Shown: positions 7,121 to 58,182 of the stretch, in pieces
How positions within the stretch are numbered: the stretch's first letter is position 1
Layout: every line of letters begins with the position of its first letter
From: Patescibacteria group bacterium
Lineage (GTDB): Bacteria; Patescibacteriota; Patescibacteriia; PEXW01
Direction: 5' to 3'
DNA: 64,000 nt
Assembly: GCA_041671325.1 (NCBI GenBank)
Contig: JBAZBR010000001.1
Span: 153,771 to 217,770, forward strand
Notes under the pieces: generated by a model
The model's input: the letters and a program-made list of their open reading frames with translations, nothing else
Told to the model about the DNA's origin: nothing
Database searches by the model: none
Made by a program: the position numbers and the translations under genes

Positions 7121-7459
7121 CTAACGGGGTTTTGTCAGTTGGCCGTTCCACCCGCCCAACATTTTTCCGATTTCATCTATTTTCATGGACAACGCGATAT
7201 ACTTTTTGTTATCCAGCGATTTTGTTTCCCACAAGATCATTAAAAGTATTTTTAGCGTGTCTGTTTTTTGAATGGCGCGACGAACATAGGGCAATTTTTC
7301 AGTTCGTCCTAAAAAGCTTGCGGTAGCAATCGCTTCTATTGTTTCGATGAAGAGGGTATCAATGCGTTGACCTAATGTGTGCCTGTGTGTTTTTGGTATT
7401 GTTTGAAAATATCCGTACCAAAGCAAATACGCACTTTTTACCTTTTGCAGGACTGGCAA
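7121..7459 (-). CDS. avd: Avd-like accessory variability determinant (four-helix-bundle protein)
   Basis: It is about 112 aa with an IPKTHRH segment. Its C-terminal EIGKMLGGW segment parallels the Bordetella phage bAvd EVGRILGSW region. It lies between TR and RT on the opposite strand. Confidence 0.6.
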   Translation of the reverse strand: MPVLQKVKSAYLLWYGYFQTIPKTHRHTLGQRIDTLFIETIEAIATASFLGRTEKLPYVRRAIQKTDTLKILLMILWETKSLDNKKYIALSMKIDEIGKMLGGWNGQLTKPR

Positions 7460-8481
7460 AAGTCGGGGGGGGTAGGATTAAGAGTATGAGTAGGATGCAA
7501 CTCATTCATAGTTATCAGCATATCATTTCCATAGAAAATTTACTTGAGGCATGGCGAGAATTCTTGGTAGGAAAACGATCTCGTTTGGATGTGCAGGCAT
7601 TTGAGATTAACTTAATGAGTAATATCATATCGTTACATAATGATCTTGCTACCAAAAAGTATCAGCATTCGTCGTATGAAGCTTTTAATATTTCCGATCC
7701 AAAACCTCGCAACATTCATAAAGCCAAGGTGCGAGACAGGTTATTACATCACGCCCTATACCGTGTTTTGTATCCATTTTTTGATAAGACATTTGTTGCC
7801 GATTCGTATTCGTGCAGGATTGGGAAAGGGACACATAAAGCAATGGAGAGGTTTCGAGGATTCGCGAATAAGACATCTCGCAATAACACAAAAACATTGT
7901 GGGTGCTAAAGTGCGATGTCAAGAAATTTTTTGCATCCATTGACCAAACTTTGCTCATGGAAATTTTGAGTGAGTACATTCCGGATAACAATGTCAGATG
8001 GCTTATGGGTCAGATTATTGGCAGTTTTTATTCAACCGAAAAAGGCAAAGGGTTACCACTTGGCAACCTAACCTCGCAACTGTTCGTTAATATGTATATG
8101 AATGAATTTGATCAATTCGTAAAGCATAAACTTAAAGCCAAGTATTACATTCGCTATGCGGATGATTTTGTTTTCATGTCGGATAGTAAGGCGTGGTTAG
8201 AATCACTGGTTCCGTTGATTAGAGATTTTTTAGCAGTCAGACTTCGCCTCACCTTACATCCACAAAAATTATTTCTTAAAACCTTGGCTTCAGGCGTTGA
8301 CTTTCTGGGATGGGTGAATTTTCCCGATCATCGCGTGTTACGCACGACAGCCCGACGGCGGATGGAAAGTCGCATCATAGAGCATCCAACGAGTGAAACG
8401 ATCCAGTCTTATTTAGGCTTACTTAAACACGGGAATACTGAGAAAATTAAAGCACAAATGTTAGGTGGTCAATTTTTGTAG
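7375..8481 (+). CDS. DGR-type reverse transcriptase (the real start is probably ATG at 7486, MSRMQLIHSY)
   Basis: It has RT motifs including LGNLTSQ (the DGR-specific [ILV]GxxxSQ in place of QGxxxSP) and YADDFVF. The size of about 330 aa is typical of DGR RTs. An AGGA-like ribosome-binding site precedes 7486. Confidence 0.85.
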   Translation: MCACVFLVLFENIRTKANTHFLPFAGLAKVGGGRIKSMSRMQLIHSYQHIISIENLLEAWREFLVGKRSRLDVQAFEINLMSNIISLHNDLATKKYQHSSYEAFNISDPKPRNIHKAKVRDRLLHHALYRVLYPFFDKTFVADSYSCRIGKGTHKAMERFRGFANKTSRNNTKTLWVLKCDVKKFFASIDQTLLMEILSEYIPDNNVRWLMGQIIGSFYSTEKGKGLPLGNLTSQLFVNMYMNEFDQFVKHKLKAKYYIRYADDFVFMSDSKAWLESLVPLIRDFLAVRLRLTLHPQKLFLKTLASGVDFLGWVNFPDHRVLRTTARRRMESRIIEHPTSETIQSYLGLLKHGNTEKIKAQMLGGQFL

Positions 8482-17117: not shown

Positions 17118-17297
17118 ATGGGTTCAAAAATTTTAATTTATATGGGCTTGTTTATCGGTTCAACGGTTGGAAGTTTAGTCCCTTCGCTTTGGCACCAAAG
17201 CGTTTTTTCAGGTCAGTCCTGGCTTGGCAGTTTAATTGGCGGAATTGTAGGAATTTGGGCGGGTTTTAAAATTAACCAGAAAATTACTGGAGGTTAA
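17118..17297 (+). CDS. small 2-TM glycine-zipper membrane protein (YeaQ/YmgE-like, 59 aa). It is not in the supplied ORF track because it is 59 aa.
   Basis: The ORF was read directly as MGSKILIYMGLFIGSTVGSLVP...GGIVGIWAGF. Confidence 0.4.
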   Translation: MGSKILIYMGLFIGSTVGSLVPSLWHQSVFSGQSWLGSLIGGIVGIWAGFKINQKITGG

Positions 17298-18022: not shown

Positions 18023-18136
18023 ACTTTTCCTCCTTTCTCTGTCTTTTTACATACATACCATACAGCGTGATTGCTGTATTTTTAACCTAAGAGTATAGGG
18101 TATTTTTGGTTTATTGTCAAGGCTAATTTTTGGAAT

Positions 18137-18268
18137 TAAAAAATAGGCTGGAGTCTTACCCAAGACTCCAGCCCCTTAACGATCCCTCAAGGAGGCCTTA
18201 GAAAAGGCCGTTACTAGCCCTGCTACCAAGAGCTCTTGTCTTGCCGCCGCTCAAGAGCGCCTAGCAGC
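18137..18268 (-). ncRNA. candidate small RNA of about 130 nt. It has a consensus promoter (TTGACA at 18303-18298, TATACT at 18280-18275) and an intrinsic terminator (12-bp stem at 18146-18173 plus a U-run).
   Basis: The promoter hexamers with a 17-nt spacer and a perfect hairpin followed by TATTTTTT on the minus strand were read directly. No ORF with a ribosome-binding site is present. The identity is unknown. Confidence 0.4.
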
Positions 18269-18404
18269 AAAACCAGTATAAAATAAAAAACGCAGTTGTC
18301 AAATATGATTATAGTAAAAGCTTTAATTTTAAAGGAGGTTTTAAATTTGCTTTTTAACGCATTTTAAGTAAAAATTAAGTTATCTACTATTAATCATCAA
18401 GAAT

Positions 18405-18965
18405 ATGACCAGAAAAACATATTACTTATTAATGCCAGCACTTTTATTGGCTATGGTTTTTGGGCTTTCAGCCTGTAAAAGCACCAGCCAAAAAGCTGCC
18501 GAATCAATTATTGAAAAATCCACCAATGGCCAAGCTGACGTGGATTTAACCAATAATAGCATCAAGGTAAATACAAACGGGTCTTCTTGGGAAACTGGCG
18601 ATAAAGTCAGCTTGCCAACGGATTTCCCATCAGATATTTATGTGCCAGAAGGAACCATTAAGACAGCGCTCAAGACTGATGCAAACAGCAGCTTTACGGT
18701 TAGTTTGGAATCCACAACTTCCATGGCAGACATCAAATCCGCTTATGAAAGCCATTTTCAATCCCAAAGCTGGACTATTACTTCTTCAGGCGCAATCCAA
18801 AATTCTTTTTCTTACCTGGCCCAAAAGGGCAATCGGGATTTGACCGTGGGCATTTCAGATTCTGACGGCAAGAGAATCGTTTCGATTACTACTTATACCA
18901 ATTCAACGACAACACAGGTTCCTGATAATAATACCAATTCAGACGAAGCCGCAACCAATAATTAG
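18405..18965 (+). CDS. secreted lipoprotein (hypothetical)
   Basis: It has a signal peptide with the lipobox LSAC. Confidence 0.5.
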   Translation: MTRKTYYLLMPALLLAMVFGLSACKSTSQKAAESIIEKSTNGQADVDLTNNSIKVNTNGSSWETGDKVSLPTDFPSDIYVPEGTIKTALKTDANSSFTVSLESTTSMADIKSAYESHFQSQSWTITSSGAIQNSFSYLAQKGNRDLTVGISDSDGKRIVSITTYTNSTTTQVPDNNTNSDEAATNN

Positions 18966-18992: not shown

Positions 18993-19781
18993 ATGGGAAA
19001 ATTTATTATTCTACCGACTGAGCAAAAGTTTATAAAAATCAGGAATTTCAATGTTGTAATGGGTTTCTTACATTTGATCCAGGCCATTGCCATGCTTTTT
19101 ATTAGTTCGGATTTTAGCTTGCCAGTAAATTCCTCTTTTGTTCAATTCAATGTGGCCAGCGGGAAATTAGAACCGGTATTGAATACGCTTTTTAGCTTGC
19201 GCATTGGGCCTTTGGTTGCCGGGTTCTTATTCCTTTCTGCTTTAGCGCATTTCGCCATTTCTTCCGGCCGGATTTACGAATGGTATATCAAGAATTTGAA
19301 AAAAGGCCTAAACCTTGCACGCTGGATTGAATATGCCCTAAGTTCATCTTTAATGATCGTGATAATTGCCATGCTGGTTGGCATGTATGATGGGGTCAGC
19401 CTGATGTTGATGTTCTTCTTAAACATGATGATGATTTTCTTTGGTTGGCTTATGGAACTGCATAACCAATCAATTTCAAAAACTAACTGGACATCCTACG
19501 TTTTTGGTTGTATTGCCGGCGCCATTCCTTGGTTAGCCGTGGCGTTTTATCTTTTTGGTTCGGGCGGTCCAACCGGCCATGCGCCGACCTTTGTCTACTG
19601 GATTTTCTTTTCAATTTTCATTTTCTTCGATATTTTTGCGGTCAATATGATTTTGCAATACAAGAAAGTCGGCAAGTGGAAAGATTACTTATATGGCGAA
19701 AGGGCGTATATAATCTTGAGTTTGGTAGCTAAGTCACTTTTAGCTTGGCAAGTCTTTTTCGGGACTTTAAGGCCGGTTTAA
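18993..19781 (+). CDS. heliorhodopsin
   Basis: It is a 7-TM protein. Its C-terminal segment GERAYIILSLVAKSLLAWQVFFGTL is nearly identical in pattern to heliorhodopsin 48C12 (ERAYIVLSLVAKSALAWQIFSGTL) and includes the retinal-binding Lys. Shared WIEYALSSSLMIV, FGWL and GCIAGAIPW segments support the call. Confidence 0.8.
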   Translation: MGKFIILPTEQKFIKIRNFNVVMGFLHLIQAIAMLFISSDFSLPVNSSFVQFNVASGKLEPVLNTLFSLRIGPLVAGFLFLSALAHFAISSGRIYEWYIKNLKKGLNLARWIEYALSSSLMIVIIAMLVGMYDGVSLMLMFFLNMMMIFFGWLMELHNQSISKTNWTSYVFGCIAGAIPWLAVAFYLFGSGGPTGHAPTFVYWIFFSIFIFFDIFAVNMILQYKKVGKWKDYLYGERAYIILSLVAKSLLAWQVFFGTLRPV

Positions 19782-19875
19782 TCTAGTTTGACAAAAATAT
19801 TTATAATTTCTATTATTAAGTTGCCTGCGGTTGCTTTATCCTTGCCTAAGCAGCCCGCAGCATTTGTAGAGTGCC

Positions 19876-19915
19876 CCTTTTGAAAGCCATCTCTCTGCCC
19901 CCCGCAGGAGATGGC
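19876..19915 (+). terminator. rho-independent terminator after heliorhodopsin (agccatctc ... gagatggct plus a T-run)
   Basis: A perfect 9-bp stem followed by TTTTTTT was read directly. Confidence 0.6.
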
Positions 19916-19961
19916 TATTTTTTTAAATGACTAGAGCCTAAACCAAAAATATTTTATCTAT

Positions 19962-20330
19962 ATGAAAAAGATTTTAATGATTGAGGATAATCAGGCTTTG
20001 CTGGAATTAATGAAATCAAAATATCAAGCTCTGGATTTGGAATTTCTAAGTTTAACTTACCCGCCAAAAAATTTAATTGAAGTCATTACGAATTTTCTAC
20101 CAGACATTATTTCTATGGACGTAACTATGCCGAATATGGATGGTTTTACCGCAACAAAAATTATAAAAACTAACTCAGAAACCAAAAACATCCCCATATT
20201 CTTTTATACGAACATGGGCAGAAAGCAAGACGTGGCCTTAGGCAGAGCATTAGGCGCAATCGGATACTTTATCAAGACTGAAAACTCTCCCGATGAAGTT
20301 GTTAATTGGGTAAAAAGCTTTTTGGGTTAA
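19962..20330 (+). CDS. stand-alone response-regulator receiver (CheY-like REC) domain protein
   Basis: It has an acidic pocket IEDN, a phospho-acceptor context DIISMDVTMPNMDG and a conserved Thr/Lys region FFYTNMGRK. Confidence 0.6.
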   Translation: MKKILMIEDNQALLELMKSKYQALDLEFLSLTYPPKNLIEVITNFLPDIISMDVTMPNMDGFTATKIIKTNSETKNIPIFFYTNMGRKQDVALGRALGAIGYFIKTENSPDEVVNWVKSFLG

Positions 20331-20974
20331 ATTGGTTTAAGGATGTCAACCGTGTCAATTGTTGGCGCGTTGACTGTCTTGGAAATCGGGTAGACTTGAA
20401 GCAAATCATCCGGAAAAACAGCCAAGCATTTCTTTAAGCTTTCAATTGGGCTTGTCAAATCCAACCATGTTTTTTCAGTTTCGGGATTTAAAATTACTGG
20501 CATGCGGTCATGTATTTTACTAATCAGCGAATTGGGTTCAGTCGTGATGATGGTGAAAGAGGGGAGGGTTTCATCCTTAAAAACATATGGCTCCCAAAGA
20601 CCGGCAAAAGCAAAGGGTTGGTTTGACTTTAAGGCAATCCGAAATGGCTGGCTGCCAGTCTTTAACCTTTGCCATTCAAAGAAGCCATCGCAAATCACCA
20701 AGCACCTTTGTTTTTGGAAGGCGTGTTTGAAAGTCGGCTTTTCTGCCACTGATTCAGCCCGGGCATTGATCAGACCTTCGGGTCTGTCCTTCAGCCATTT
20801 CAGTCTTAAACCCCAAATCCCAGGTTGGATAGCTTGAGGTTTTTCGTTGGTGATAACTGGCAAAATCTGTGAAGGCGCGGCATTATAGTGCTTAAAAATC
20901 TTGCCTTGGACTTTTGCGCCAAAGCGTTTTTCCAGGATTTCATCCGGTGAGAATATTGAATAACGGCCACACAT
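20327..20974 (-). CDS. SOS-response-associated peptidase (SRAP/YedK, abasic-site processing)
   Basis: It has the N-terminal MCGR with the catalytic Cys2, and typical family length. Confidence 0.8.
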   Translation of the reverse strand: MCGRYSIFSPDEILEKRFGAKVQGKIFKHYNAAPSQILPVITNEKPQAIQPGIWGLRLKWLKDRPEGLINARAESVAEKPTFKHAFQKQRCLVICDGFFEWQRLKTGSQPFRIALKSNQPFAFAGLWEPYVFKDETLPSFTIITTEPNSLISKIHDRMPVILNPETEKTWLDLTSPIESLKKCLAVFPDDLLQVYPISKTVNAPTIDTVDILKPI

Positions 20975-21037: not shown

Positions 21038-21562
21038 ATGCCAAATCCAGTACCCACGCCAAAATCAATAAATCCAGAAGAAGAACCCGAGGATATTTTT
21101 GAATTTGTCGAAAAAACTCCTGAAAAACCAGTGGAAGTGAAGATTGAGAAAGTCCGGGAAGCCTTAGAACAGCACGGCGAGAGGTTTGAACCTAAAGCCG
21201 CCCAGCAAACCGAAACCCGTGAATTGCCAGCCCAAGCGCCTGTTTCAAGCCAACCGACCATGCCTCTGCCCATCGCTGAGGAAGAAAAACGGGTTCAAGA
21301 GGTGGAGCAAATATTAGCTGATGGCTTGCAGGATTTGTACATGTCTTTGCCTCCGGTAGAACAACAAAAATTTAAAATTGAAGGCGAAAAAGCTGCCCGG
21401 GAAGTCGTTGGTCTTTTAGGCCAAGTTAAAGTAAAAATTGATTTGATAATAAGCGTCATCCGCAGGTGGTTATCTATTATTCCAGGCGTGAATAAGTTTT
21501 TTATCGAGCAGGAATCAAAAATTAAAGCCCAAAAACTCCTACTCTTAAAACAAAGAAAATAA
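21038..21562 (+). CDS. hypothetical protein (acidic and Pro-rich N-terminal region)
   Basis: It has an ORF and is adjacent to the following ATPase. There is no recognisable domain. Confidence 0.4.
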   Translation: MPNPVPTPKSINPEEEPEDIFEFVEKTPEKPVEVKIEKVREALEQHGERFEPKAAQQTETRELPAQAPVSSQPTMPLPIAEEEKRVQEVEQILADGLQDLYMSLPPVEQQKFKIEGEKAAREVVGLLGQVKVKIDLIISVIRRWLSIIPGVNKFFIEQESKIKAQKLLLLKQRK

Positions 21563-21565
21563 AAT

Positions 21566-24115
21566 ATGTTAGGAATTTGGCCAAGTCCAGCCTTTGCCCA
21601 AGACCTGGAAACCGAAACCGCAATCCAGACTCCGTCTAATTACATTTTATACGGCGTAATTGCTTTGACCATAATTTTCATCATCTTGTTTTTCATTTGG
21701 TTAAGGCAACGGCGGAAGAAAAATGCGCCCGAAGGCCTGCAAAGAATCTGCCTAATGATTACCTTGCCAAAAGAACAGCAGGAAGAGGAAGGCAGCAAAG
21801 GCCCTTCTCGGATCCAGCACATGCAAGAACAGATAAGCGTAGGGGAATCATTCCTTTCGTTTTTGGGCAATATGCGTTCCCAACGCTGGTTTAACACTTT
21901 GGGCCGAGGCCGGAGCGACCATTTTAGCTTGGAAATCGTCGCGGATAGGGGCGATATCCGTTTTTATGCCGTCATTCCGCAGATGATGCAGGAATTCATG
22001 GAGCAGCAAATTCACGCCCAATATCCCAGCGCAGAAGTGGTTGTCCAACCAGAATATAATCCTTTTCGGCCGAAATCTTTTATCGTCGGCGCCATGCTGG
22101 CCCAGAAAAAAAATAAAGTTTTGCCGATGCTCACCTTTCGCCGGATGGATGTTGATCCTTTATCTGGTTTGACAAATGCCTTGAGCAAATTGGAAAAAGA
22201 CGAATCAGCGGTTATCCAATTTGTTTGTCGGTCTTCACACCCGCGCTGGCATATCCGCGCAAATTTGGTCATCAGGCAATTACGGGACGGAAAAAGGTCA
22301 GTGCTGTACAATCGGTACTGGGTATTTATGGCAAAAAGCATTATTTCCGGAATTTTTTCAACCTTTTTTTCCAAAAAATCCAAGCAAGACGAGCTTAGCT
22401 TGCAAAAGCAGCTGACTCCGGGTGATGAAGAAATTCTCCAGAAAGTTCAGGAAAAAAATGCCAAAGCCGGTTTAGACGTAAACATTCGGGTTATTGTATC
22501 ATGCCCAAATTTAAGCGCGGCTGACTTGCGTTTAAAAAACATTTTGGATTCTTTTGGTCAATATAATGCTTTTAATACTGGCAATACCTTAATAAGAAGA
22601 AATCCATGGAAAAAGGATGAACTAATCCATGATTTTATTTACCGTTCATTTGATAGATGGCGATTTTCAATTTTGAATGTGGAAGAGCTGGCCAGCATGT
22701 GGCATCTGCCTATTCCCTCAACGGAAACCCCGAACATTCGCTGGATCCTTTATCGGACCGCGCCACCGCCGATAAATATTCCGCCGACTGGAGTAATTTT
22801 AGGCTCCAGCCATTTCCGGGGTGAAGAAAAAATAATCAAGATTGCCCGGGAAGACCGGCGGCGTCATGTCTACATTATTGGTAAATCTGGCGTGGGTAAA
22901 TCCGTGCTCATGACGCAAATGGCCCTGCAGGATATTGCCAATGGCGATGGGGTTTGCGTGGTAGATCCGCATGGGGATTTAATCATGGATATCCTAGCCA
23001 GACTGCCGATACACCGCCGGAATGACGTCATCCATTTTAATCCTTCGGATGTTGAAAATCCTGTGGGTTTGAATATGCTGGACGCCAAGACGCCTGAAAC
23101 TCAGGATTTTGCCGTGCAGGAAATGATTGCGATTTTCATGAAATTGTTCCCGCCGGAAGTCATTGGCCCGATGTTTGAGCATAATATGCGCAATGTCATG
23201 TTAACCCTGATGGCTGACCGCGAACACCCAGGCACGATCGTGGAAATCCCACGGATGTTTACCGACCCGGTTTTCCAAAAAGCCAAAGTTTCCAAAGTTA
23301 CGGATCCGATCGTCAGGTCTTTTTGGGAAAAAGAAATGGCCAAGACTTCGGATTTCCACAAAAGCGAAATGCTGGGTTATCTGATTTCCAAAGTCGGCAG
23401 GTTTGTGGAAAACAGCATGATGCGCAATGTCATTGGCCAGTCGGAAAGCGGTTTTGATTTTGAAAAGATCATGAATGAAGGCAAAATTCTCTTAGTCAAC
23501 CTTTCCAAAGGCACGACCGGCGAAGTCAATGCCAACTTGCTTGGCTTGATAATTGTTTCCAAATTGCAAATGGCTGCCTTGCGCCGGGCCAGTCTGCCCC
23601 AAGAGCAAAGGAAAGATTTTTTCCTGTATATTGACGAGTTCCAAAATTTCATCACGGATTCCATCGCCACCATTTTGTCCGAAGCTAGAAAATACCGCTT
23701 GAACCTGACGATTGCCCACCAGTACGTCGGCCAGTTGGTGGAAAAGCAAGATACCCGCATTCGTGATGCGGTCTTCGGCAATGTTGGCACTATTGTGGCT
23801 TTCCGGGTTGGAGTCGAAGACGCGGAAATTTTTTCCCAAGCCTTTGCCCCAATCTTCAACCAGTTTGACGTGACTAATATGGAAAAATACACAGCCATCG
23901 TCAAACTGCTTATTGATAATGCTTCTTCCAAGCCATTTACCATGAACACTTTGCCGCCCAGTCAGCCAATTCCAGGCCAGGCCGAACAAATAGTCGCCTT
24001 ATCCAGGCAACTTTATGGGCGACCTCGGGCGCAAATCGAAGCCGAAATTATGGAAAGGTCGCAATTAGGCGCCAGTGCCGCCCCACCGCCCATGGTGGCG
24101 GAAAAAAAGGCGTAA
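21566..24115 (+). CDS. membrane-anchored P-loop ATPase, VirD4/TraG/TrwB-like coupling-protein or HerA/FtsK-like
   Basis: It has N-terminal TM helices, a Walker A motif IGKSGVGKS, a Walker B motif FFLYIDEFQNF, and a size of about 850 aa. Confidence 0.55.
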   Translation: MLGIWPSPAFAQDLETETAIQTPSNYILYGVIALTIIFIILFFIWLRQRRKKNAPEGLQRICLMITLPKEQQEEEGSKGPSRIQHMQEQISVGESFLSFLGNMRSQRWFNTLGRGRSDHFSLEIVADRGDIRFYAVIPQMMQEFMEQQIHAQYPSAEVVVQPEYNPFRPKSFIVGAMLAQKKNKVLPMLTFRRMDVDPLSGLTNALSKLEKDESAVIQFVCRSSHPRWHIRANLVIRQLRDGKRSVLYNRYWVFMAKSIISGIFSTFFSKKSKQDELSLQKQLTPGDEEILQKVQEKNAKAGLDVNIRVIVSCPNLSAADLRLKNILDSFGQYNAFNTGNTLIRRNPWKKDELIHDFIYRSFDRWRFSILNVEELASMWHLPIPSTETPNIRWILYRTAPPPINIPPTGVILGSSHFRGEEKIIKIAREDRRRHVYIIGKSGVGKSVLMTQMALQDIANGDGVCVVDPHGDLIMDILARLPIHRRNDVIHFNPSDVENPVGLNMLDAKTPETQDFAVQEMIAIFMKLFPPEVIGPMFEHNMRNVMLTLMADREHPGTIVEIPRMFTDPVFQKAKVSKVTDPIVRSFWEKEMAKTSDFHKSEMLGYLISKVGRFVENSMMRNVIGQSESGFDFEKIMNEGKILLVNLSKGTTGEVNANLLGLIIVSKLQMAALRRASLPQEQRKDFFLYIDEFQNFITDSIATILSEARKYRLNLTIAHQYVGQLVEKQDTRIRDAVFGNVGTIVAFRVGVEDAEIFSQAFAPIFNQFDVTNMEKYTAIVKLLIDNASSKPFTMNTLPPSQPIPGQAEQIVALSRQLYGRPRAQIEAEIMERSQLGASAAPPPMVAEKKA

Positions 24116-43425: not shown

Positions 43426-43499
43426 TCCGGGATCGTCTAATGGTAGGACAGCGGCCTTTGAAGCCGTTTATCTTGGTTCGAATCCAGGTCCCGGAGCCA
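43426..43499 (+). tRNA. tRNA-Gln (anticodon TTG)
   Basis: The cloverleaf was folded by hand, with acceptor tccggga/tcccgga, anticodon loop ctTTGaa and T-loop ttcgaat. Confidence 0.8.
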
Positions 43500-45080
43500 A
43501 TGTGCACGAAGCGACCGCTCTGGGTCGTTTTGTGCTGTAGTTGCAAAGGATTTCTTTGGTTCTAACATAGTCATTACTCGCTCTGCATTCTGATCAAGAT
43601 TTTTCACCGCAAACAGGAGAATGTCCAATGAAAGGTGGAGCTTTCCGTCCTTTAAAGAAAAGTTCGAACCTAGCGTTGTAAAAATCTCTTTTTTCACCTC
43701 AAGGCTTCCCGTAGCGAATACGCGCCGTGCTTTCTCTGCAAAGTTGATGCCCCGCTCGGCAATCCCCAGCCAATTTTCAATCCGCTTGTCCGTATCTTTC
43801 AAGAATTCCTGCATACGGTCTTTCTCTTTTAGTAAGGCAACCTTCCTGCCTCGAAACTCCACCTCATCAATCTCACTGTTTGCCCGCATGTCAATGAGGT
43901 TATCAAGCTTCTTCACGCACGATTCGTACTCTCGACGTTGGTTGCCGTAAACACGTTCCCGGTCCACTACTTCAAGCTTGTGCATTTCCCGGAGCCTCGC
44001 AATAGCCCAGTCTCGAAAATCCTCTTTGATTTCTAATTTACCAAGTTCAGTGGCAATCTGCTTTTCCACTTCACCTTCCTCAAGGGACTTTTGGGTGCAG
44101 TTCGGGTACTTCCGCTTCGTGCAGTGGTAGTAAATGTAGTGTTGGACGGTTCCATCAGCGAGGCGTTTCGTTTTCTCTTCAGCCGTGACCATTGCACCGC
44201 ACTCGCCACAGCGGATTGGGCCACGGTAAGGAAAGTCATGCGTCTTTGAGCGCTGGGGTGACGGGCGGCCAAGGAGTTCCTGAATGCGTTCAAACTCCTC
44301 TCGGTTAATCATTGCTTTGTGAATACCTTTATGCCAGTTGCCGCTACCCTTGGGATACTCGAACTCCCCATAGTAGAACGTATTTGTGAAAATGTTGTAG
44401 ATGGAGCTTCGACAAATTGGGGTGCCATAAGTGCCCCTAAGTTTCCACTCATCAGCCGCAATTTGCTGGATGCGTGGCGGAGAGTAGTTACCCGTAAGCA
44501 TGAGATCAAACATCTTTCGCACCAGGCCAAAGCGCTCCGGGTCGGGTGTAATAGTTTTCATGCCTTTGGTCATGTACATTTCGTTTTTATAACCCAGGGG
44601 TGCGGGAGCGGGCAGTACTCCCATTTGTGCTTTTTGAACCAAACCACGCTTCACATCCCTGCCTTTCTTGGCGCTCTCATACTGCGACTGCGAAAGCGCC
44701 AGTTGTAGCATCCAGATACCTTCAGGCGAGTTATTCTCAAAGTGGTAGGTGGCCAGCTTGAGGTCTTTGATGATGCCCTCACGTAACATGTAGGTAATAC
44801 TACTCGCGTCAACTTCATTGCGAGAAAGACGATCTGGATGCCACGCGAGTAAGCCCTGGCGTTCGCCCTTCCGAATACGTTCCAACATCTTGGTAAAAGC
44901 AGGGCGATTATACGGGTGAAAGGCACTGGCCTTGTCCTCAACGAATTCAATATCGAGGTCAGCAAAGACCTCAGTGAGCTTATTCTTTTGCGCAGGGATA
45001 GATAACGCCTGTCGCTCTTTTCCTTCAGAGGACTTACGTACGTAAGCGAAGTATTTAGTTGTTTTGCCGTGTGGATCCAT
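43437..45080 (-). CDS. large serine recombinase (resolvase N-terminal domain, recombinase domain and zinc ribbon). Its 3' end overlaps tRNA-Gln.
   Basis: It has an N-terminal YVRKSS...RQ.LSI catalytic Ser region, a YYHCTKRK...NCTQ zinc-ribbon region and a length of about 547 aa. It is a paralog of 58183..59859. Confidence 0.8.
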   Translation of the reverse strand: MDPHGKTTKYFAYVRKSSEGKERQALSIPAQKNKLTEVFADLDIEFVEDKASAFHPYNRPAFTKMLERIRKGERQGLLAWHPDRLSRNEVDASSITYMLREGIIKDLKLATYHFENNSPEGIWMLQLALSQSQYESAKKGRDVKRGLVQKAQMGVLPAPAPLGYKNEMYMTKGMKTITPDPERFGLVRKMFDLMLTGNYSPPRIQQIAADEWKLRGTYGTPICRSSIYNIFTNTFYYGEFEYPKGSGNWHKGIHKAMINREEFERIQELLGRPSPQRSKTHDFPYRGPIRCGECGAMVTAEEKTKRLADGTVQHYIYYHCTKRKYPNCTQKSLEEGEVEKQIATELGKLEIKEDFRDWAIARLREMHKLEVVDRERVYGNQRREYESCVKKLDNLIDMRANSEIDEVEFRGRKVALLKEKDRMQEFLKDTDKRIENWLGIAERGINFAEKARRVFATGSLEVKKEIFTTLGSNFSLKDGKLHLSLDILLFAVKNLDQNAERVMTMLEPKKSFATTAQNDPERSLRAHWLRDLDSNQDKRLQRPLSYH

Positions 45081-45121
45081 AAACCTTTTAATAGGATAGC
45101 TTAGTTGCGTTATAGCACTTT

Positions 45122-45751
45122 TTATATTTCAAGGTTAGTATAGCTTCTAGACGCCTGTTCGTAGAGCCTATACAGACGTTGTTGTTTTTTTGTGGGCTTT
45201 CCGGCGTAGTATGGGTTTTTTATTTTCTCCTGAAGTTCATACATTTTCTTGTGCATCATAAGAGTATTGAAGAGCGAAAAGTATTTACTACGTCGGTTTT
45301 CATTTCTGGAACTGTAGGTGAGATTGTAACAATGCCGGCAGGCGAAAAAAGTGCCAATTTGGTAGAGAACCCCCACCCGTCGACCGCAGTAATGACCATT
45401 GGAGAAGAATGGGCAACGAAACCAATATCGTTTACCCCCGTATCGGCATACCGTGGTAGTAAGAGGTACCCGACAGTCAAAAGCCTTCTCATCGCCATTG
45501 GGGTCGGTCTGTGCATAGGTTAAAAGTATATAAGCATTTTCACCAAGTGCCGAGACAGCGAGGTGGGTACTACTTTCCTCACCAGTGTAACCGTTGGTCC
45601 AGGTCATGGTCGCTGTTCTCCCGCTGGAAAGAAGGCCATTATGTTTGAGCACGTTAATAGATAGCTTCTTTAACCGATCTGCCTCGATTTTGCGTAAAAT
45701 CGTTATCCTATAATTACCGAAATCATTTGAGATTGGGGTCGGTTGCGGCAT
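45122..45751 (-). CDS. hypothetical Cys-rich (zinc-ribbon-like) protein
   Basis: It is an ORF with CRYGGKRYWFRCP...CRHC and lies between the recombinase and the primase. Confidence 0.45.
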   Translation of the reverse strand: MPQPTPISNDFGNYRITILRKIEADRLKKLSINVLKHNGLLSSGRTATMTWTNGYTGEESSTHLAVSALGENAYILLTYAQTDPNGDEKAFDCRVPLTTTVCRYGGKRYWFRCPFFSNGHYCGRRVGVLYQIGTFFACRHCYNLTYSSRNENRRSKYFSLFNTLMMHKKMYELQEKIKNPYYAGKPTKKQQRLYRLYEQASRSYTNLEI

Positions 45752-47940
45752 TAAAGTAATTTTTCAGTTACATTTACCCCACCCTTCGTCTCACTATTAT
45801 TGCCAGGAGGATTAGCCGTCAAATCGTTGGCGTCTTTACTACCATCAGAATTTTGAAAGTGGGAGGATGGGAAAATCAAGATTTTCCGTTTATCATCGGG
45901 ATCTTGCTCCTGGATGATAAGCCCGGCCGTCTCCAACATTGGCAGTATTTGCTGACGGAGCTGATGCGTGTCCAGCATCCGTCCGTAGACGGCGAAGTGT
46001 TTACTTAGCACCTCTTGGCGGGTAACTCCGACTGTACCTACGACTTTCTCTATTCCGTCTTGCCCTACATTTTTTTCCTCCCAAGCAGGAAAAATTATGT
46101 CTTTATAGAGGTCGTAAATGTAGGGTGGCAAATTGAGTTCCTGGCTTACAGAGATTTTATCCCAGAGCATGAAGGCCGCATCAATATCTTCATTATTAGC
46201 CATGATGGTTGAGTCTGTCTGTTCCCGCCACCAGATATTAAGGAGGGCAAACGCTTTAATAAGGGAGAGAAGTCGTTTGATGTCCCGTTGGTGACGCGGT
46301 TTGAGGAACTGATGATCGCCAAGGAAGCGTTTCTCTATCCTCTCCGGTGATACGATATTTATTTCCTTTGCATTCTCCAGCTTGATGGCACGGATGCGTT
46401 CTTTGAGCAAGATGCGTCCTGGATCCGCCTCTAGCCAGCTCGTGAAGCTTTCGCTGTTTGCTTCTTTGCGAATAACGGCGCTAATACCCTCGTGAATTTT
46501 TTCCTGATTAACCTCTGGCGAGAGTAGAAGAAAGCGGGTTGCTTCTTGCTCATCTATACGGAGTCCCGCGGTACAAAAGATGACTGACGGAAAACCTTTA
46601 ATAATTACAGTCTTGGTTCGGTTGCCACCTTTTTCATTTTTGTCGGTTATTTTGGATTGCATCTCTTTTTCGTCATGGGACAAAAGAGATCGTAATCGCT
46701 CTAGAAGATCGGCATGAGGTTGATCTAGAAAAATGATTATTTTCCTCGATAAATCCACTACGATTGTATTCGTATCCTTGTCAAACTCACCTTGCTCGTG
46801 AAAAAAAGCGTTGGGTGAGCAGTTGCCCAATTTCATAACATCTTGATTTGGAAACAAATTGGAGATTTCCAGTGGGATGTAGCTTTTCCCCGTTGAGGAT
46901 GGTGCGTTGTAACTGATGTTGAATTGGGCGTTTTCGGTGTATGCAGACAATTCACATAAGAACGTGGCGAGCTTGTTTTCTGCGTCGTGTTTAATGGTCA
47001 ACCCAAGCGTTGCAAGGAGCTGATTGACTGTGAGCGGCGTGAACTTGCTAGTATCAATCCGTTCGGGATACGGTTTCGCGTACTTGGAGAATAGGTCCTC
47101 AACCGTGCCATTCAGCTTAGTGAAGTAATCAGTTACATCCCCCCCATCGCCGACCTCCGGCGGAAGGGTGATGATGAATGTTTCTACTTTTCCGCCATCT
47201 TCAACCATTTTTGCGGTTCGCTCTGCGCCCTTTCGACCAGCATTATCGTTGTCGAAGCATACATAAACCTCCTTGAGGTTTTGGATACGTTCTGCCCATT
47301 CTTTATTGAACGTCATTGCCCCATGAGTCGAAGTAACAGCTAAAACACCTTTGGAGATGAGTAAGAGTCTGTCTAGTTCTCCCTCACACACCACCAGAGG
47401 GCTATCTGAAGTTTCTAGAGCTCCCCAGTCATACAGTTGGGCTTCCACCCCACTGGGGTAGGTCATTTTGTCATTCCCAAATGCTGGATCCTGTCGGAGC
47501 TTAAAAAAGACGTAATTCCCGTAGGTATCCTTGATGGGTATGGTAATCCACTGCTTACGGTAGAATTGCCCGTAGCCGAGCTTGTAGGCGTCAATTACAG
47601 CGTCTGTAAGCCCCCGCTCGTGTAGGTATTCACGAATATGAATTGGGAGTGCCTGGTGGTACTTCTCAACCTTGTCTGTAACAGAGTTGATCGTCCGGCG
47701 AGGGCGTGACTCCTCGTCGCCCAGATGTTTGCGGAGGGTTTGGAGATTACCTTGTGCGCCACACTTCTTGCAGTCGTACTGCCCGGTTTCGGTATTGAAG
47801 TACAAGTGCGCCTCTCCGTTCCTGCTATCCTTGTCGCACTCGTTTAATAGGCATTTCGTGATGAGTTCGTTGCCACTCTCGCGGAATGCGATACCCTTCT
47901 GGGCTAGGTACTCGCGGATGGTAATTGTCTGTAGGGTCAT
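45751..47940 (-). CDS. phage/plasmid-type DNA primase-helicase (zinc finger, Toprim and P-loop region)
   Basis: It has an N-terminal CxxC...CxxC zinc finger, a Toprim-like EGELDRLLL...TSTHG region and a Walker-A-like PSSTGKSY motif. It is 729 aa. Confidence 0.6.
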   Translation of the reverse strand: MTLQTITIREYLAQKGIAFRESGNELITKCLLNECDKDSRNGEAHLYFNTETGQYDCKKCGAQGNLQTLRKHLGDEESRPRRTINSVTDKVEKYHQALPIHIREYLHERGLTDAVIDAYKLGYGQFYRKQWITIPIKDTYGNYVFFKLRQDPAFGNDKMTYPSGVEAQLYDWGALETSDSPLVVCEGELDRLLLISKGVLAVTSTHGAMTFNKEWAERIQNLKEVYVCFDNDNAGRKGAERTAKMVEDGGKVETFIITLPPEVGDGGDVTDYFTKLNGTVEDLFSKYAKPYPERIDTSKFTPLTVNQLLATLGLTIKHDAENKLATFLCELSAYTENAQFNISYNAPSSTGKSYIPLEISNLFPNQDVMKLGNCSPNAFFHEQGEFDKDTNTIVVDLSRKIIIFLDQPHADLLERLRSLLSHDEKEMQSKITDKNEKGGNRTKTVIIKGFPSVIFCTAGLRIDEQEATRFLLLSPEVNQEKIHEGISAVIRKEANSESFTSWLEADPGRILLKERIRAIKLENAKEINIVSPERIEKRFLGDHQFLKPRHQRDIKRLLSLIKAFALLNIWWREQTDSTIMANNEDIDAAFMLWDKISVSQELNLPPYIYDLYKDIIFPAWEEKNVGQDGIEKVVGTVGVTRQEVLSKHFAVYGRMLDTHQLRQQILPMLETAGLIIQEQDPDDKRKILIFPSSHFQNSDGSKDANDLTANPPGNNSETKGGVNVTEKLL

Positions 47941-48125
47941 AGTGGGTAATGTTTAGTGAGTGAGGGGTTGGGGAAAGTTCTTTGCGCTTTCTTTCAGGAC
48001 AACCTCCATTAGGCGGATGAGTCGTAGTCCCTTCTCCAGTGCTTCCTCCTTGGTGAGGTCCACACCAAAGTGCTTGCGGTAGAGCATTTGGAACTCGGTA
48101 AGGTGGTCGTCCGTGAGCTGCATGG

Positions 48126-48419
48126 CTATTCGGAGTAGAGCCGATTTTTTAGCATTTTGAGGGTGTCGAAGTACTGTAATGCAGAGATTTTGAGTTCACC
48201 CGCCCAATATTTATTTATAGCCTCGTCGATTCCTTCCTTACGTTTGAAGACAAAAAGTGCCTTCCGTGGGTTCGTTTTATCGAGCGTTACAAGTTCAAAA
48301 CCTGAACAGAGGAGCGCGGAACAAGCGCCCATGTCAAAGGACCTTAGAAGATGCTCTTGGTTGTCAAGCGGAATGTGGCGGATCTCTTCCGGGGGTATGC
48401 TCTTCTGTCCTTGAGTCAT
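48126..48419 (-). CDS. hypothetical protein
   Basis: It is an ORF in the mobile region. Confidence 0.35.
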   Translation of the reverse strand: MTQGQKSIPPEEIRHIPLDNQEHLLRSFDMGACSALLCSGFELVTLDKTNPRKALFVFKRKEGIDEAINKYWAGELKISALQYFDTLKMLKNRLYSE

Positions 48420-48518
48420 AAATATTTAGGTAATAAAAAAATAGCGTAATCTACTTTAAAGTTACGCGTTAGCTGTTTTGTTGTCGTTGTAGGCTTATTG
48501 GGTCATATCATTTCTGAC

Positions 48519-49337
48519 TTAATCTGTATGTTTCCACTCCGGTAAACCTTTAAGAAATGAATTGATGATTTCTTCGTTAATATTTAGACTTCGTAAGTTC
48601 TGCGTATCTATTTTTGTACGAAATTCTACACCGGCGCTTGATATACCCGGAAAGAAGAGTTTTTTAAGTTCCTTAGTAAAACCTAAATCATCAATGATTT
48701 GGTGAAGCGACTTTTTGAGAGTTGTTCTCATTCCCGACTCGATATCCTTTTTCGTATGCTTTTGATCAGGATGAGCAAAAACATACTCACAAAATTTATC
48801 ATTTTCGCTGTCAAAGTTAGGCCTACTAAGAATGCGGTCGTTAATAATCAGCTCACGGGTTTTGGGACGAAAAATAGAGTAAATGGAGCGGGGATCAATA
48901 CTATTATGTGAATAGACAATAGATTGTTTCTTCTTACTTCCAGCTTTCAACTTTTGAAAAGAAGGTTCGACATCTTCATATTCGTCTGCGACCCATTTTA
49001 AGTAGTTTTCAAAAGCAACATTATCAATAATTTGTATAGAAAAATGATCTAAGGGAGCGACATGATCGGTTAGGGTAATCCACCTGTACCGAATACCACC
49101 ACCCTCAAGTGAAGCTTTTTTTAGAATGCTTTCAACTTCGGATTGATTTTTTACAAGTCCTCGGCCGGCTTCGAAGAAGTCAGTCCATTTGATATTAAAA
49201 TTAACCTGATCACGTGGCGCTATCTCTTTTCGTTGCCGTATATAAAGTAATATCCTCTTTATCTTCAGAAGGCCGTCTCTCTTGAGTTGTAATTGATTCT
49301 TATCTTGTTGATCCATAGTAATAATATACTTGCACAA
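48519..49337 (-). CDS. hypothetical protein (low GC, about 35%)
   Basis: It is an ORF with no recognised domain. A nested perfect hairpin lies upstream at 49426-49497. Confidence 0.4.
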   Translation of the reverse strand: MCKYIITMDQQDKNQLQLKRDGLLKIKRILLYIRQRKEIAPRDQVNFNIKWTDFFEAGRGLVKNQSEVESILKKASLEGGGIRYRWITLTDHVAPLDHFSIQIIDNVAFENYLKWVADEYEDVEPSFQKLKAGSKKKQSIVYSHNSIDPRSIYSIFRPKTRELIINDRILSRPNFDSENDKFCEYVFAHPDQKHTKKDIESGMRTTLKKSLHQIIDDLGFTKELKKLFFPGISSAGVEFRTKIDTQNLRSLNINEEIINSFLKGLPEWKHTD

Positions 49338-49585
49338 TGTCCTGCTTTTCAGTATGATTTTATCAGCTTCAAGACTTTTTTCAAGAGCAAATGCGTTAGC
49401 AGAATAGACAATTTTCGAGCCTAAACCTCACTTCGTGAGGCATGGTACCAAACCCCTTAGTAGATACTGAACCCCGTGTTCAGCGACTCTACTAAGGGTC
49501 ACATTCCGAAAGGGATGTGGGTGGCCGAAAGGTCGCTAGCTGGCGCGGGGTTTTGTGTTTTTACTCTCTTATCAAATCATAAACT

Positions 49586-49885
49586 ATGGAAAGTTCTGCA
49601 GAAAAAATTATCAAAGTGCAACAAAAAAGATACTACCATTGTGAAAAGTGTGGTTCCTATACAAGAGCGCCAATTGAAGAGCCAAACTTCTTTTTCCTGT
49701 TGTTGGGAGGTTTTCTGATAGCACTTATTCGTCAATGGGTAAAATCTAAGCCGCCTAAAGTATGCGTGAAATGCGGTAGTAGTATTACATCAAAAGAAAT
49801 ATTTTTAAGAACAGAGATGGGTAAAAGCCGAAAGGAAATTGCATTTTATTTACCCTCAGGTGATAGAGTTCAATCGCAAACTTAA
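49586..49885 (+). CDS. hypothetical zinc-ribbon membrane protein
   Basis: It has CEKCG...CVKCG flanking one TM helix. Confidence 0.35.
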   Translation: MESSAEKIIKVQQKRYYHCEKCGSYTRAPIEEPNFFFLLLGGFLIALIRQWVKSKPPKVCVKCGSSITSKEIFLRTEMGKSRKEIAFYLPSGDRVQSQT

Positions 49886-50437
49886 TATATGAAAATTGTT
49901 AAAGCTAAACAGTCTTTTATTATTCTTGCCGTACTGTGGTTTATGATGTTGATCCCGATTATTGTGGACGCTCATTTGAGTCGTGTTGGGGCACTGATTT
50001 TCTGGCTGCCCTTTTGCTTTATGATTTTCTACTTGTATCGTATTTTAACCCCATGACCTCACGTCTCGAAAAAGTACTCATTGTAAGTATGGGTTTTAAT
50101 TGTCATCCAATGTCCCGCCGCTGATGGTGGTGTAGCGGATGACGTGGTCAATCTTATGCAACAGTCAAATTCAACCCATATAGTTATTGGTATCAGTGCT
50201 TTCATTGCCAGTTTTTTCTTCTATTTCATATTGCTTCCACGAAGTATCACGGTGAGTTATGCTTATGAAGATACCTTAAGCTTGAGTACTCTGTGGCTAG
50301 TTCTTGGTACTTTATGTTTTTGGATCGCTTTTTTGTGTGTGTATGGTTATTTCAAAAAATAATAGAACATTATTATCTCGGCATGTCGATATAAAGAGAC
50401 TTTGTTCTACTGGATATAATGCTTTATCGAAATAGCA

Positions 50438-51283
50438 ATGTATAAAATTTTTATCTTTGAGGACGATCATTTTCTACGTGAGATGTATGTTGGGATGCTT
50501 AAGACAGAAGGTTTTGAGGTTTTTGAATTTGAATATCCGCCAATTAACGTGGTGGATATTATCGCTCAAGCAAAACCCGACGTGATAATATTTGGTATAC
50601 TGCCGAACCTTTCGGGTCCTGAAACTATTAAGCAGTTGCAAGTTGACCCAAGAACCAAGAATATCCCTTGTCTTGACCTTGGTAACATCAATAAACCTAT
50701 TGATAAAAAATCTCATAAATGGAGCGGCGCGGATGACTATAAAATGATGGCTGACATGATGCCTTCTGCTGTTATCAACCGCGCGAAGGCGTTGATCGGT
50801 TTGCCTCCAACTAAATATAAATCAGTATACAAACAGAAACCTTTAGAAACATTACAACCACCAGCTACGCCAACTAAAGTTGCAAATCCACAATACAACT
50901 TTAAAATAATGATGTTTGAAGATGATCTGTTTATGCAGGGAATGTATGAACTAAAATACCAAGCGCATGGTATTACAGTAGTTGCATTTGAATACCCACC
51001 AGTAAATGTTGCTGATGTAGTTGCAAAAGAAAAACCAGATGTAATATCTATGGGAGTAATTATGCCACACATGGATGGTTTTGAGGCAGCGGCTATTCTT
51101 CATAAAGATCCACGAACAAAAGCCATTCCACTTTTCTTTTTTACAAACATGGGGAGGAAAAAAGACATTGAAAAAGGCGTGTCTTTAGGAGCGGTAGATT
51201 ACATAATTAAAACTAATTGTCCTCCCCAGGCAGTTCTTGAAAGGGTAGTAACGATTGTACAAAAATCAAATGCTAACCATTAA
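50438..51283 (+). CDS. tandem receiver-like (REC-REC) protein, a paralog of the REC protein at 19962. The first domain lacks the phospho-acceptor Asp.
   Basis: Its second half (DVISMGVIMPHMDGF...FFFTNMGRKKDIEKGVSLGAVDYIIKT) is clearly similar to 19962..20330. Its first half has FGILPNLSG in place of the acceptor Asp. Confidence 0.55.
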   Translation: MYKIFIFEDDHFLREMYVGMLKTEGFEVFEFEYPPINVVDIIAQAKPDVIIFGILPNLSGPETIKQLQVDPRTKNIPCLDLGNINKPIDKKSHKWSGADDYKMMADMMPSAVINRAKALIGLPPTKYKSVYKQKPLETLQPPATPTKVANPQYNFKIMMFEDDLFMQGMYELKYQAHGITVVAFEYPPVNVADVVAKEKPDVISMGVIMPHMDGFEAAAILHKDPRTKAIPLFFFTNMGRKKDIEKGVSLGAVDYIIKTNCPPQAVLERVVTIVQKSNANH

Positions 51284-51614
51284 CCACGCTAGAAAGCTAA
51301 TTGGCGACAGTGCGCTTACTGATGATGAAGTTCAGGATATTATGGATAGACTTTACCAACTGGCAGCAACTGGGTTAGATCATTACGTTGCTTATCGTAA
51401 AAACGGAAAGGAGGAAAGTGATGTAGCGCCATTTTTTATAAAAAGGGGAAACGTGTAGTAGGTTAAAAGATTTAGAGCAGCCCTTTCTGCAGAAGGTATG
51501 GCGGTTAGTACGGATTTTTTACGTTTTAAAGTAGTAAGTAACAGGGTGGGGACGCTTGACGACCTGAGCAAATTACGAGAGGATTAAGCCATCAAATTTT
51601 AACCATATACACCT

Positions 51615-52544: not shown

Positions 52545-52608
52545 TTACAAATCCAATAACGGACATTCACAACTTAATACTTAACTAAAACCCAAACACA
52601 GGAGGTCA

Positions 52609-55332: not shown

Positions 55333-55499
55333 TCTTAACCTTAAACATCAACACGCCCTGCGGACTATCCGTGGGGCGTTTTTCAATTCAGAAATTTAAA
55401 ATTAGCAATAGTGAGTTGCGGTAATCACGAAAATTTTTTATAGTAAAGACTATTTTTAATGGATCTTGCCTCCCAAATATAACTCATTAGGTGTAAGAT

Positions 55500-56432: not shown

Positions 56433-56441
56433 ATCATTCCA

Positions 56442-56990: not shown

Positions 56991-57179
56991 AGGAATCTCC
57001 CTAGACACTGACACTTTAACGTTAAATAGAATTTAGCCATGATGTTGCTTTAAAAATTTTTTATTTTTTTCTAACAAACGAGGCGTATACTAGAGAAAAA
57101 TTTGGAGACGGCTCTTTATTTCAGGTGGGTAGGGGGGGGCGGTAATAAAACTTCACAAAATGAGTAGTATTGAGTATAC

Positions 57180-58134: not shown

Positions 58135-58182
58135 AGATGAGTTTTGTCCTGATTAAATAGTGAGTACTGGGGTGGGGTAAAT

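Follow-up and report, generated by a model that had tools for sequence, protein, structure and literature searches.

The stretch of DNA analysed here (the window: 64,000 nucleotides of contig JBAZBR010000001.1, positions 153,771 to 217,770 of the forward strand) comes from a Patescibacteria group bacterium and contains a heliorhodopsin gene followed directly by a gene for a stand-alone CheY-like receiver. The original prediction, made from the sequence of the window, took this adjacency as a sign of a possible light-signalling arrangement from heliorhodopsin to receiver. The map of open reading frames (ORFs) returns the same coordinates as that prediction. The two genes and the features in the spacer between them are as follows.

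18993..19781, plus strand: heliorhodopsin gene, 262 amino acids (aa), identified by Pfam and NCBIfam profiles and by its retinal-site residues
19788..19816, plus strand: candidate sigma-70-like promoter match TTGACA-17-TATTAT (11 of 12 positions), directly 3' of the heliorhodopsin stop codon
19826..19859, plus strand: first spacer hairpin, present in both the minimum free energy and the centroid folds
19885..19925, plus strand: predicted intrinsic terminator in the folds, consisting of a GC-rich hairpin (19885-19916) and then U7, 37 nt before the receiver start codon
19962..20330, plus strand: stand-alone single-domain response-regulator receiver of PP-motif group A (defined below), 122 aa, PF00072

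The assignment of 18993..19781 as a heliorhodopsin is borne out by hidden Markov model (HMM) searches. The product scores 327.3 bits against PF18761 (cutoff 26.7), covering profile positions 1-242 of 242, and 337.8 bits against the NCBIfam heliorhodopsin (HeR) equivalog NF038020 (cutoff 100). Its top relatives in the PDB are TaHeR (6is6; E 4e-80, 53% identity) and 48C12 (6su3; E 1e-63, 45% identity). In the alignment with 6su3, the retinal Schiff-base lysine K247 corresponds to K241 of 48C12 and S243 to S237, such that the helix-G motif SxxxK reads S243-LVA-K247, while the counterion E113 in helix C matches E107 and H27 matches H23. The helix-G string given for 48C12 in the original prediction matches the sequence of 6su3. 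K247, E113, H27 and H86 are all invariant in an alignment of 38 heliorhodopsin relatives. A crude hydropathy and positive-inside count places clusters of Lys and Arg in the N-terminus, the BC loop and the FG loop, the pattern expected of an N-in protein, and from the 53% identity to TaHeR we infer an N-in topology.

The protein shares with 48C12 and TaHeR a full-length alignment, its length, the retinal lysine of the SxxxK motif, the glutamate counterion and the two histidines, and probably also the N-in topology. It differs from them in its origin from a Patescibacteria metagenome-assembled genome and in its neighbours. As judged by these residues, it is an ordinary member of the family in which every residue for retinal binding and for the heliorhodopsin photocycle is kept. 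Heliorhodopsins of candidate phyla radiation (CPR) bacteria are on record, with SLVAK as their commonest motif (PMC9166423). NCBI already lists the identical protein under the name 'MAG: heliorhodopsin HeR [Patescibacteria group bacterium]', encoded on a contig of 618 kb.

The product of 19962..20330 matches PF00072 with 54.8 bits over residues 4-111, and its residues E8/D9, D53, T83 and K105 align with D12/D13, D57, T87 and K109 of CheY. An AlphaFold2 model computed with 35 family members has the complete (beta-alpha)5 fold of five strand-helix units at a predicted local distance difference test (pLDDT) value of 98.3. The nearest PDB structure to this model is RR468 of Thermotoga maritima (template-modelling score 0.92, 30% identity). 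The receiver is not a fragment of a larger regulator, an outcome that the original prediction had named as a concern, because its orthologs also have 122-132 aa; among these, P0122, P0123 and P0126 are 61-66% identical to it. No NCBIfam equivalog matches the receiver at or above its own cutoff, and its NCBI name is already 'response regulator'. By fold and alignment it is a complete, canonical receiver with its phosphorylation site intact.

Receivers whose beta2-alpha2 loop carries an inserted [YF]PP motif make up a small patescibacterial family, referred to here as the PP-motif family. The window receiver, P0122, P0123 and P0126 form group A, and group B, with ~30% identity to group A, consists of P0125 and P0127-P0130. 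Members of group C lack the phospho-Asp and are similar to the second domain of the tandem protein encoded at 50438..51283 (see below), and group D consists of P0141 and P0143.

The spacer between the two genes is 180 bp long. Its fold-energy z is -4.4 to -4.5, and none of 200 shuffles is equally stable. From the hairpin followed by U7 it follows that the heliorhodopsin and receiver genes are apparently split by an efficient intrinsic terminator. The prediction of a stand-alone single-domain receiver 180 bp downstream and past a terminator is thereby sustained by PF00072, the CheY alignment and the spacer fold. The receiver is probably not a partner of the co-transcribed type, as the terminator intervenes and the heliorhodopsin stop codon is followed by a promoter-like site.

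The spacer could also be read as a regulatory RNA, with the promoter at 19788-19816 giving rise to a leader or small RNA of ~100 nt and the receiver being expressed by conditional read-through. This is compatible with the other readings discussed below, and we consider it unlikely. The 11/12 promoter match lies directly upstream of the structured region, where two stable hairpins (z -4.5) are found, and the 5' arm CCUGCGG, read from the sequence, is pairable with the CCGCAGG of either hairpin. Moreover, there is little room for a separate receiver promoter because only 37 nt lie between the U-tract and the start codon, and upstream of the lipoprotein gene that precedes the heliorhodopsin gene there is another unit in which a promoter, a structured RNA and a terminator follow one another. 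However, promoter-like matches in the region are no commoner than in shuffles (5 seen versus 7.2 expected), and an Rfam scan of the spacer returns no match even at E up to 1. Nor is the spacer conserved in the related locus L003 (also P0004), where it measures 430 bp, contains an opposite-strand 61-aa ORF and appears unrelated in sequence when aligned by eye. The hairpins could simply end the heliorhodopsin transcript, or they could act as a leader or attenuator for the receiver gene.

The arrangement that we favour, with moderate confidence, is that of an ordinary heliorhodopsin and an ordinary orphan canonical receiver that form two independent functional and transcriptional units, the kinase of the receiver being encoded elsewhere. 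The neighbouring genes on which this interpretation draws are listed here.

17118..17297, plus strand: o59, a small glycine-rich membrane protein used as a marker of synteny; its homologs precede the group B receiver, directly in L009 and L093 and across a 151-aa ORF in L098
18135..18270, minus strand: candidate small RNA in the spacer that separates o129 from the lipoprotein gene, made up of a promoter-like site, a structured region of 136 nt and a terminator
18405..18965, plus strand: predicted lipoprotein with lipobox LSAC, ending 27 bp before the heliorhodopsin start
20327..20974, minus strand: SRAP (SOS-response-associated peptidase) gene, PF02586 at 214 bits, convergent with the receiver gene with a 4-bp overlap
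21038..24115, plus strand: conserved downstream block of o174 and an 849-aa VirD4/TraD-like coupling ATPase (Pfam T4SS-DNA_transf and TrwB_AAD_bind; NCBIfam TraD-like)

In this two-unit arrangement, a transcription unit of lipoprotein and heliorhodopsin would end at the strong intrinsic terminator. The heliorhodopsin would be loaded with retinal from outside, as proposed for other CPR bacteria, and would act as a slow light sensor whose direct binding modulates a partner protein, a mode demonstrated experimentally for other heliorhodopsins. The nearest candidate for such a partner would be the lipoprotein and not the receiver, because known heliorhodopsin partners are encoded in the operon of the heliorhodopsin. 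The phosphate of the receiver would come from acetyl phosphate or from a kinase whose gene lies outside the window, and the position of the receiver would reflect a lineage-specific neighbourhood (o59 - receiver - lipoprotein - heliorhodopsin - o174 - VirD4-like ATPase), the order of which is being reshuffled among relatives.

Conservation of the pairing was assessed from the side of either gene. From the heliorhodopsin side, 80 species-representative (GTDB) heliorhodopsin loci were searched with a receiver HMM trained on these loci, and receiver density was tested on 82 loci. A receiver lies within 1.2 kb of the heliorhodopsin gene at three of the 82 loci (about 2-4%), and five receivers lie at 1.5-5 kb. 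The corresponding densities are 13.4 per Mb (<=1.2 kb) and 12.4 per Mb (1.5-5 kb; binomial p=0.59), a comparison that contrasts near with far flanks of heliorhodopsin and has the genome-wide background outside it. The co-occurrence of heliorhodopsin with neighbouring receivers, which the original prediction named as a check, is thus not visible as a family-wide enrichment. When three genes on each side of heliorhodopsin were clustered at 83 loci, no widely recurrent neighbour emerged and the receiver cluster contained four loci. The loci of close relatives, with the identity of their heliorhodopsin to that of the window, read as follows.

P0002 (84%): Macro - lipoprotein - HeR - PFOR; no receiver
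P0003 (83%): lipoprotein - HeR - PFOR; no receiver
P0004, Parcubacteria SURF_31 (76%): atp ... HeR - opposite-strand 61-aa ORF - receiver - o174 - 849-aa VirD4-like ATPase
P0005 (77%): DUF6512 - HeR
P0006 (75%): lipoprotein - HeR - aminoacyl-tRNA synthetase
P0008 (77%): receiver 4 kb upstream of heliorhodopsin, with five genes between them, including an ABC transporter and the lipoprotein
P0010 (73%; L096): HeR - SRAP

The P0004 locus carries the same gene block as the window. Among the near-clade loci, a receiver flanks heliorhodopsin in two of 12 and lies within 5 kb in three of 12. Conservation of the adjacency in related genomes, which the original prediction required, therefore largely fails, and the two closest heliorhodopsins have PFOR downstream. 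In L030 the order is atp ... lipoprotein - HeR ... o174 - 849 and the group A receiver is missing.

Two ORFs near other heliorhodopsin genes, assigned by reading their sequences, deserve mention: a peroxiredoxin-like ORF in L030 (5781-6368), 16 bp after heliorhodopsin, and a thioredoxin-reductase-like ORF in L040 (7667-8584), 2 kb downstream of heliorhodopsin. Both fit the published link between heliorhodopsin and oxidative-stress genes.

From the receiver side, five contexts of group A and B receivers are readable: the window, L003, L009, L093 and L098. Heliorhodopsin is directly upstream of the group A receiver in the window and in L003. For group B, the order is o59 - receiver - HeR with a gap of 76 bp in L009, and o59 - 151-aa ORF - receiver - lipoprotein in L098, where a 78 bp gap precedes the lipoprotein gene and the contig then ends. 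In L093 the order is o59 - receiver - five genes - HeR, which places the receiver 4 kb upstream. More distant relatives of the receiver have unrelated surroundings: in group D (P0141, P0143), where MscL and ABC-transporter genes are the neighbours, no heliorhodopsin is found within 8 kb. A metagenome scan with the receiver alignment picked up five distant loci (24-36% identity), none with heliorhodopsin within 6 kb, a result that is uninformative for orthologs. On these sequences, the family of PP-motif receivers is restricted to a syntenic lineage that contains heliorhodopsin, which is a new but minor delineation.

The receiver-side contexts speak for a possible clade-specific light-signalling pair of heliorhodopsin and PP-motif receiver. 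Here, the receiver would bind to the basic cytoplasmic N-terminus, BC loop and FG loop of the light-activated heliorhodopsin, and binding would alter its phosphorylation or its availability to targets, either without a kinase or with a kinase encoded elsewhere. We judge this pair to be unlikely. All five contexts would be counted in its favour, as would the lack of a kinase among the scanned ORFs of the window, the published two-component hypothesis that includes Patescibacteria (PMC8612252), and direct partner binding as the demonstrated mode of heliorhodopsins. On the other hand, all five genomes share macro-synteny in the form of o59, lipoprotein, heliorhodopsin or o174/849, and for this reason the five contexts are not independent observations and common descent explains the proximity equally well. 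The constant partner of the group B receivers is o59 (3/3), while the distance to heliorhodopsin shifts with inserted genes. Neutral descent with insertions would produce this pattern, which is also compatible with a functional link. Furthermore, the closest heliorhodopsins lack the receiver, as does L030 despite the same synteny; a terminator (window) or an opposite-strand ORF (L003) lies between the genes; and the receiver resembles a standard kinase substrate, RR468 being the substrate of a classical histidine kinase. No fusion of heliorhodopsin with a receiver occurs among the 120 best heliorhodopsin relatives, all of which have 229-277 aa.

In a stricter version of the pair, the PP-motif receivers would have co-evolved with heliorhodopsin as its cytoplasmic partner and be controlled by direct light-dependent binding and not by a histidine kinase. 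This we think quite unlikely. If true, it would make the receiver the first dedicated heliorhodopsin transducer and would explain why a receiver stays within a few kb, on either side, while other neighbours change. The physiology of heliorhodopsins is understood only in part and they have no known dedicated signal transducer; a genuine heliorhodopsin-receiver pair, if true, would supply one.

Several points weigh against the two-unit reading. All five group A and B contexts lie within 4 kb of heliorhodopsin or of the linked lipoprotein gene, on both sides, and this proximity could reflect selection. The density test, by its near-versus-far design, leaves a genome-wide excess outside its view, and two-component domains are reported to be significantly over-represented within 10 kb of heliorhodopsin genes (PMC8612252). 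Pfam scans were run on all window ORFs of >=200 aa except the evident ATP-synthase genes, plus several shorter ORFs; no HisKA or HATPase_c domain was found in these scanned ORFs of the 64-kb window, nor in the called genes of L003, L093 and L098. Many members of the PP-motif family lack the phospho-Asp, which hints at phosphorylation-independent roles in the family as far as its sequences tell. Finally, it is from the 27-bp same-strand gap that lipoprotein and heliorhodopsin are taken to be probably co-transcribed in one operon.

The absence of a cognate histidine kinase from the window had been noted in the original prediction and agrees with these scans. Its proposal of light signalling from heliorhodopsin to receiver largely fails, though it is not fully refuted: the recurrent position of group A and B receivers near heliorhodopsin or its lipoprotein speaks for it, and the closest relatives, the enrichment test and the terminator speak against it. 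A signalling link is weakly supported, because recurrence of the pairing is limited to a few closely related genomes.

A further reading assigns the receiver to the o174 and VirD4/TraD-like ATPase block, or to pilus or DNA-translocation ATPases in a PilG/PilH-like manner, with heliorhodopsin as a bystander; this seems very unlikely. The block is kept in L003 and L030, and L009 has o174, the contig ending right after it. In L003, o174 and the 849-aa ATPase gene start 70 bp after the receiver on the same strand, and the contig of P0126 (a 64% ortholog) has a similar layout, with a gene end, a ~420-bp gap, the receiver and a same-strand gene 58 bp on. The next-closest non-PP receiver, P0124 (L085, 1475-8640; Falkowbacteria; 39% identity), belongs to a type IV pilus operon, in which its gene stands between the two ATPase genes of the T2SSE family and PilM, PilO, T2SSF and pilin genes are also present. 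However, both the window and L087 have the convergent SRAP gene between the receiver and o174. In L030 the o174-849 pair is retained although a group A receiver is missing, L009 retains o174 at its contig end, and group B receivers are nowhere found beside the block. The operon of P0124 in itself resembles a PilG/PilH-like arrangement, here in CPR bacteria.

The convergent receiver-SRAP pair recurs in L087 (SRAP at 384-914), the contig of P0122, which extends 18 bp upstream of the receiver, and SRAP, which shields abasic sites, follows heliorhodopsin in L096 (5392-6060). As a candidate recurrent neighbour of heliorhodopsin, SRAP was rejected: the combination is seen in the window and L096 only, L087 being too short to show heliorhodopsin, and in none of the 80 GTDB loci. 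Its recurrence is probably due to chance or to clade synteny.

Comparison with characterized systems places these readings in context. Known heliorhodopsin partners bind directly and in a light-dependent manner and are encoded in the same operon, as is the case for glutamine synthetase, photolyase and an ABC transporter (PMC9529153, PMC9769723, PMC11109279). The pairs AbHeR-glutamine synthetase, TfHeR-photolyase and OcHeR-OmrDE provide a candidate mode for the window, in which a light-activated heliorhodopsin modulates a protein encoded by a neighbouring gene. In contrast to these pairs, the window receiver is located behind a terminator, and the neighbour in the probable operon of heliorhodopsin is a predicted lipoprotein. 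In a 2024 classification of heliorhodopsin-flanking genes, receivers fall outside the ten recurrent groups.

A rhodopsin also ultimately controls the phosphorylation of a CheY-like receiver in the haloarchaeal sensory rhodopsin I/II-Htr-CheA-CheY pathways and in the algal histidine-kinase rhodopsins. Signalling in these systems depends on CheA together with a transducer that carries HAMP and MCP-signal domains, or on a fused kinase, whereas neither these nor an Htr-like transducer or CheA/CheW are present among the scanned window ORFs. Moreover, their rhodopsins are of type 1, with a topology opposite to that of heliorhodopsin.

The stand-alone single-domain receivers RR468 (the cognate of HK853), DivK and the phytochrome-linked Rcp1 share their fold and catalytic residues with the window receiver. 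Their cognate histidine kinase is known and usually encoded by an adjacent gene, whereas the window receiver has none in 64 kb, and it differs from them in addition by the [YF]PP insertion in the beta2-alpha2 loop.

Closest to the present proposal is that of Bulzu et al. (2021, mSphere; PMC8612252), in which heliorhodopsin is a sensory rhodopsin linked to two-component genes, Patescibacteria included, with HisKA and Response_reg genes nearby. Their argument is statistical, kinase-centred and built on +/-10 kb windows, while the window has a lone receiver and no kinase, and our near-versus-far flank comparison shows no extra enrichment at the immediate neighbour. Both proteins of the window belong to well-known families and are correctly named in public records, and the general two-component idea was published in 2021. 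With ordinary, annotated proteins, a published idea and an adjacency found within one syntenic lineage, the locus does not make a strong lead.

Within this clade, the lipoprotein gene accompanies heliorhodopsin more consistently than any other neighbour, a new but minor observation. It forms the largest neighbour cluster (7/83 loci), mostly immediately upstream and on the same strand. In L001, L002, L030 and L095 a homolog lies immediately upstream of heliorhodopsin; in L093 it is the second gene upstream, and in L006 it precedes heliorhodopsin by ~0.9 kb. Pfam and NCBIfam scans of the window lipoprotein give no match, while its homologs bear a precomputed match to PF27226 (AF_1845), for which a literature search returned nothing. 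A profile of the lipoprotein family finds nothing below E 0.1 among PDB sequences, and the single-sequence AlphaFold2 model (pLDDT 44) is too poor for use. The lipoprotein may serve heliorhodopsin as an accessory on the outside of the cell that captures, for example, exogenous retinal or carotenoid. In a 2025 preprint, heliorhodopsins are proposed to capture exogenous carotenoid, and a lipoprotein on the extracellular face is of interest in this respect.

No crt or blh genes and no other carotenoid or retinal synthesis families were found in the scanned window ORFs, in line with the earlier remark that retinal biosynthesis genes are not visible in the window. Their absence is usual in CPR bacteria, which lack blh and probably scavenge retinal, and in many heliorhodopsin hosts, for which retinal uptake has been proposed (PMC9296517).

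Upstream of the lipoprotein gene, the candidate small RNA has a TTGACA-16-TATACT promoter-like site at 18302-18275 (11/12 matches) and a terminator of 13 pairs and a T-run at 18174-18145. The region folds with -65 kcal/mol (z -4.9). An Rfam scan of 18135..18270 gives no match, and aligning this structured spacer with that preceding the receiver reveals no meaningful similarity between the two. A decayed group B receiver was looked for between o59 and the lipoprotein gene of the window and was not found. A Pfam scan of o59 gives no match.

The window encodes a second protein with receiver-like domains, which together with its surroundings is listed here.

50438..51283, plus strand: tandem PP-motif pseudo-receiver protein, 281 aa, with two receiver-like domains according to the CheY alignment
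43426-59859: putative integrative element with tRNA-Gln and two serine recombinase genes

The earlier description of this protein as a tandem paralog holds for its two receiver domains and for the missing phospho-acceptor Asp of the first. The loss is not limited to the first domain: in the CheY alignment, Gly occupies the phospho-acceptor position of both (IIFGI and ISMGV). The second domain keeps the acidic pair, Thr and Lys, and the first is more degenerate. When the PP-receiver profile was run against 1.84 billion representative proteins, the top matches were multi-receiver proteins, including the tandem protein of the window. Its relatives are tandem receiver proteins of 280-474 aa, most with Gly, Ser or Asn in place of Asp in one or both domains and many with a hydrophobic C-terminal tail. 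None of the nine best-scoring tandem proteins whose sequences were read is fused to a heliorhodopsin.

The tandem gene is probably carried on an integrative element, because it is flanked by two serine recombinase genes and lies beside a Toprim gene and tRNA-Gln. The tRNA-Gln (43426-43499) overlaps the 3' end of the serine recombinase gene at 43437-45080 (minus strand), and the second serine recombinase gene is located at 58183-59859. Besides the tandem pseudo-receiver gene, the region contains genes for a Toprim/primase-like protein (45751-47940), a GmrSD_C nuclease and a SocA/Panacea antitoxin-like protein. A LOOT RNA (RF03000; 84 bits versus a gathering score of 46) is found at 49418-49537 on the plus strand, ~900 bp upstream of the tandem gene.

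Also in this region, 52609-55332 (plus strand) encodes a 907-aa protein with Peptidase_M23, FG-GAP repeats and a type IX secretion sorting domain (Por_Secre_tail), and the GC content around it is 0.48-0.50 versus about 0.42 elsewhere. Such a sorting domain is unexpected in a Patescibacteria genome and could point to horizontal transfer or to a binning or assembly issue. At the other end of the window, a reverse transcriptase gene (7375-8481, plus strand; RVT_1, 77 bits) is situated close upstream of the ATP synthase operon and could belong to a group II intron, a retron or an element of the diversity-generating retroelement type.

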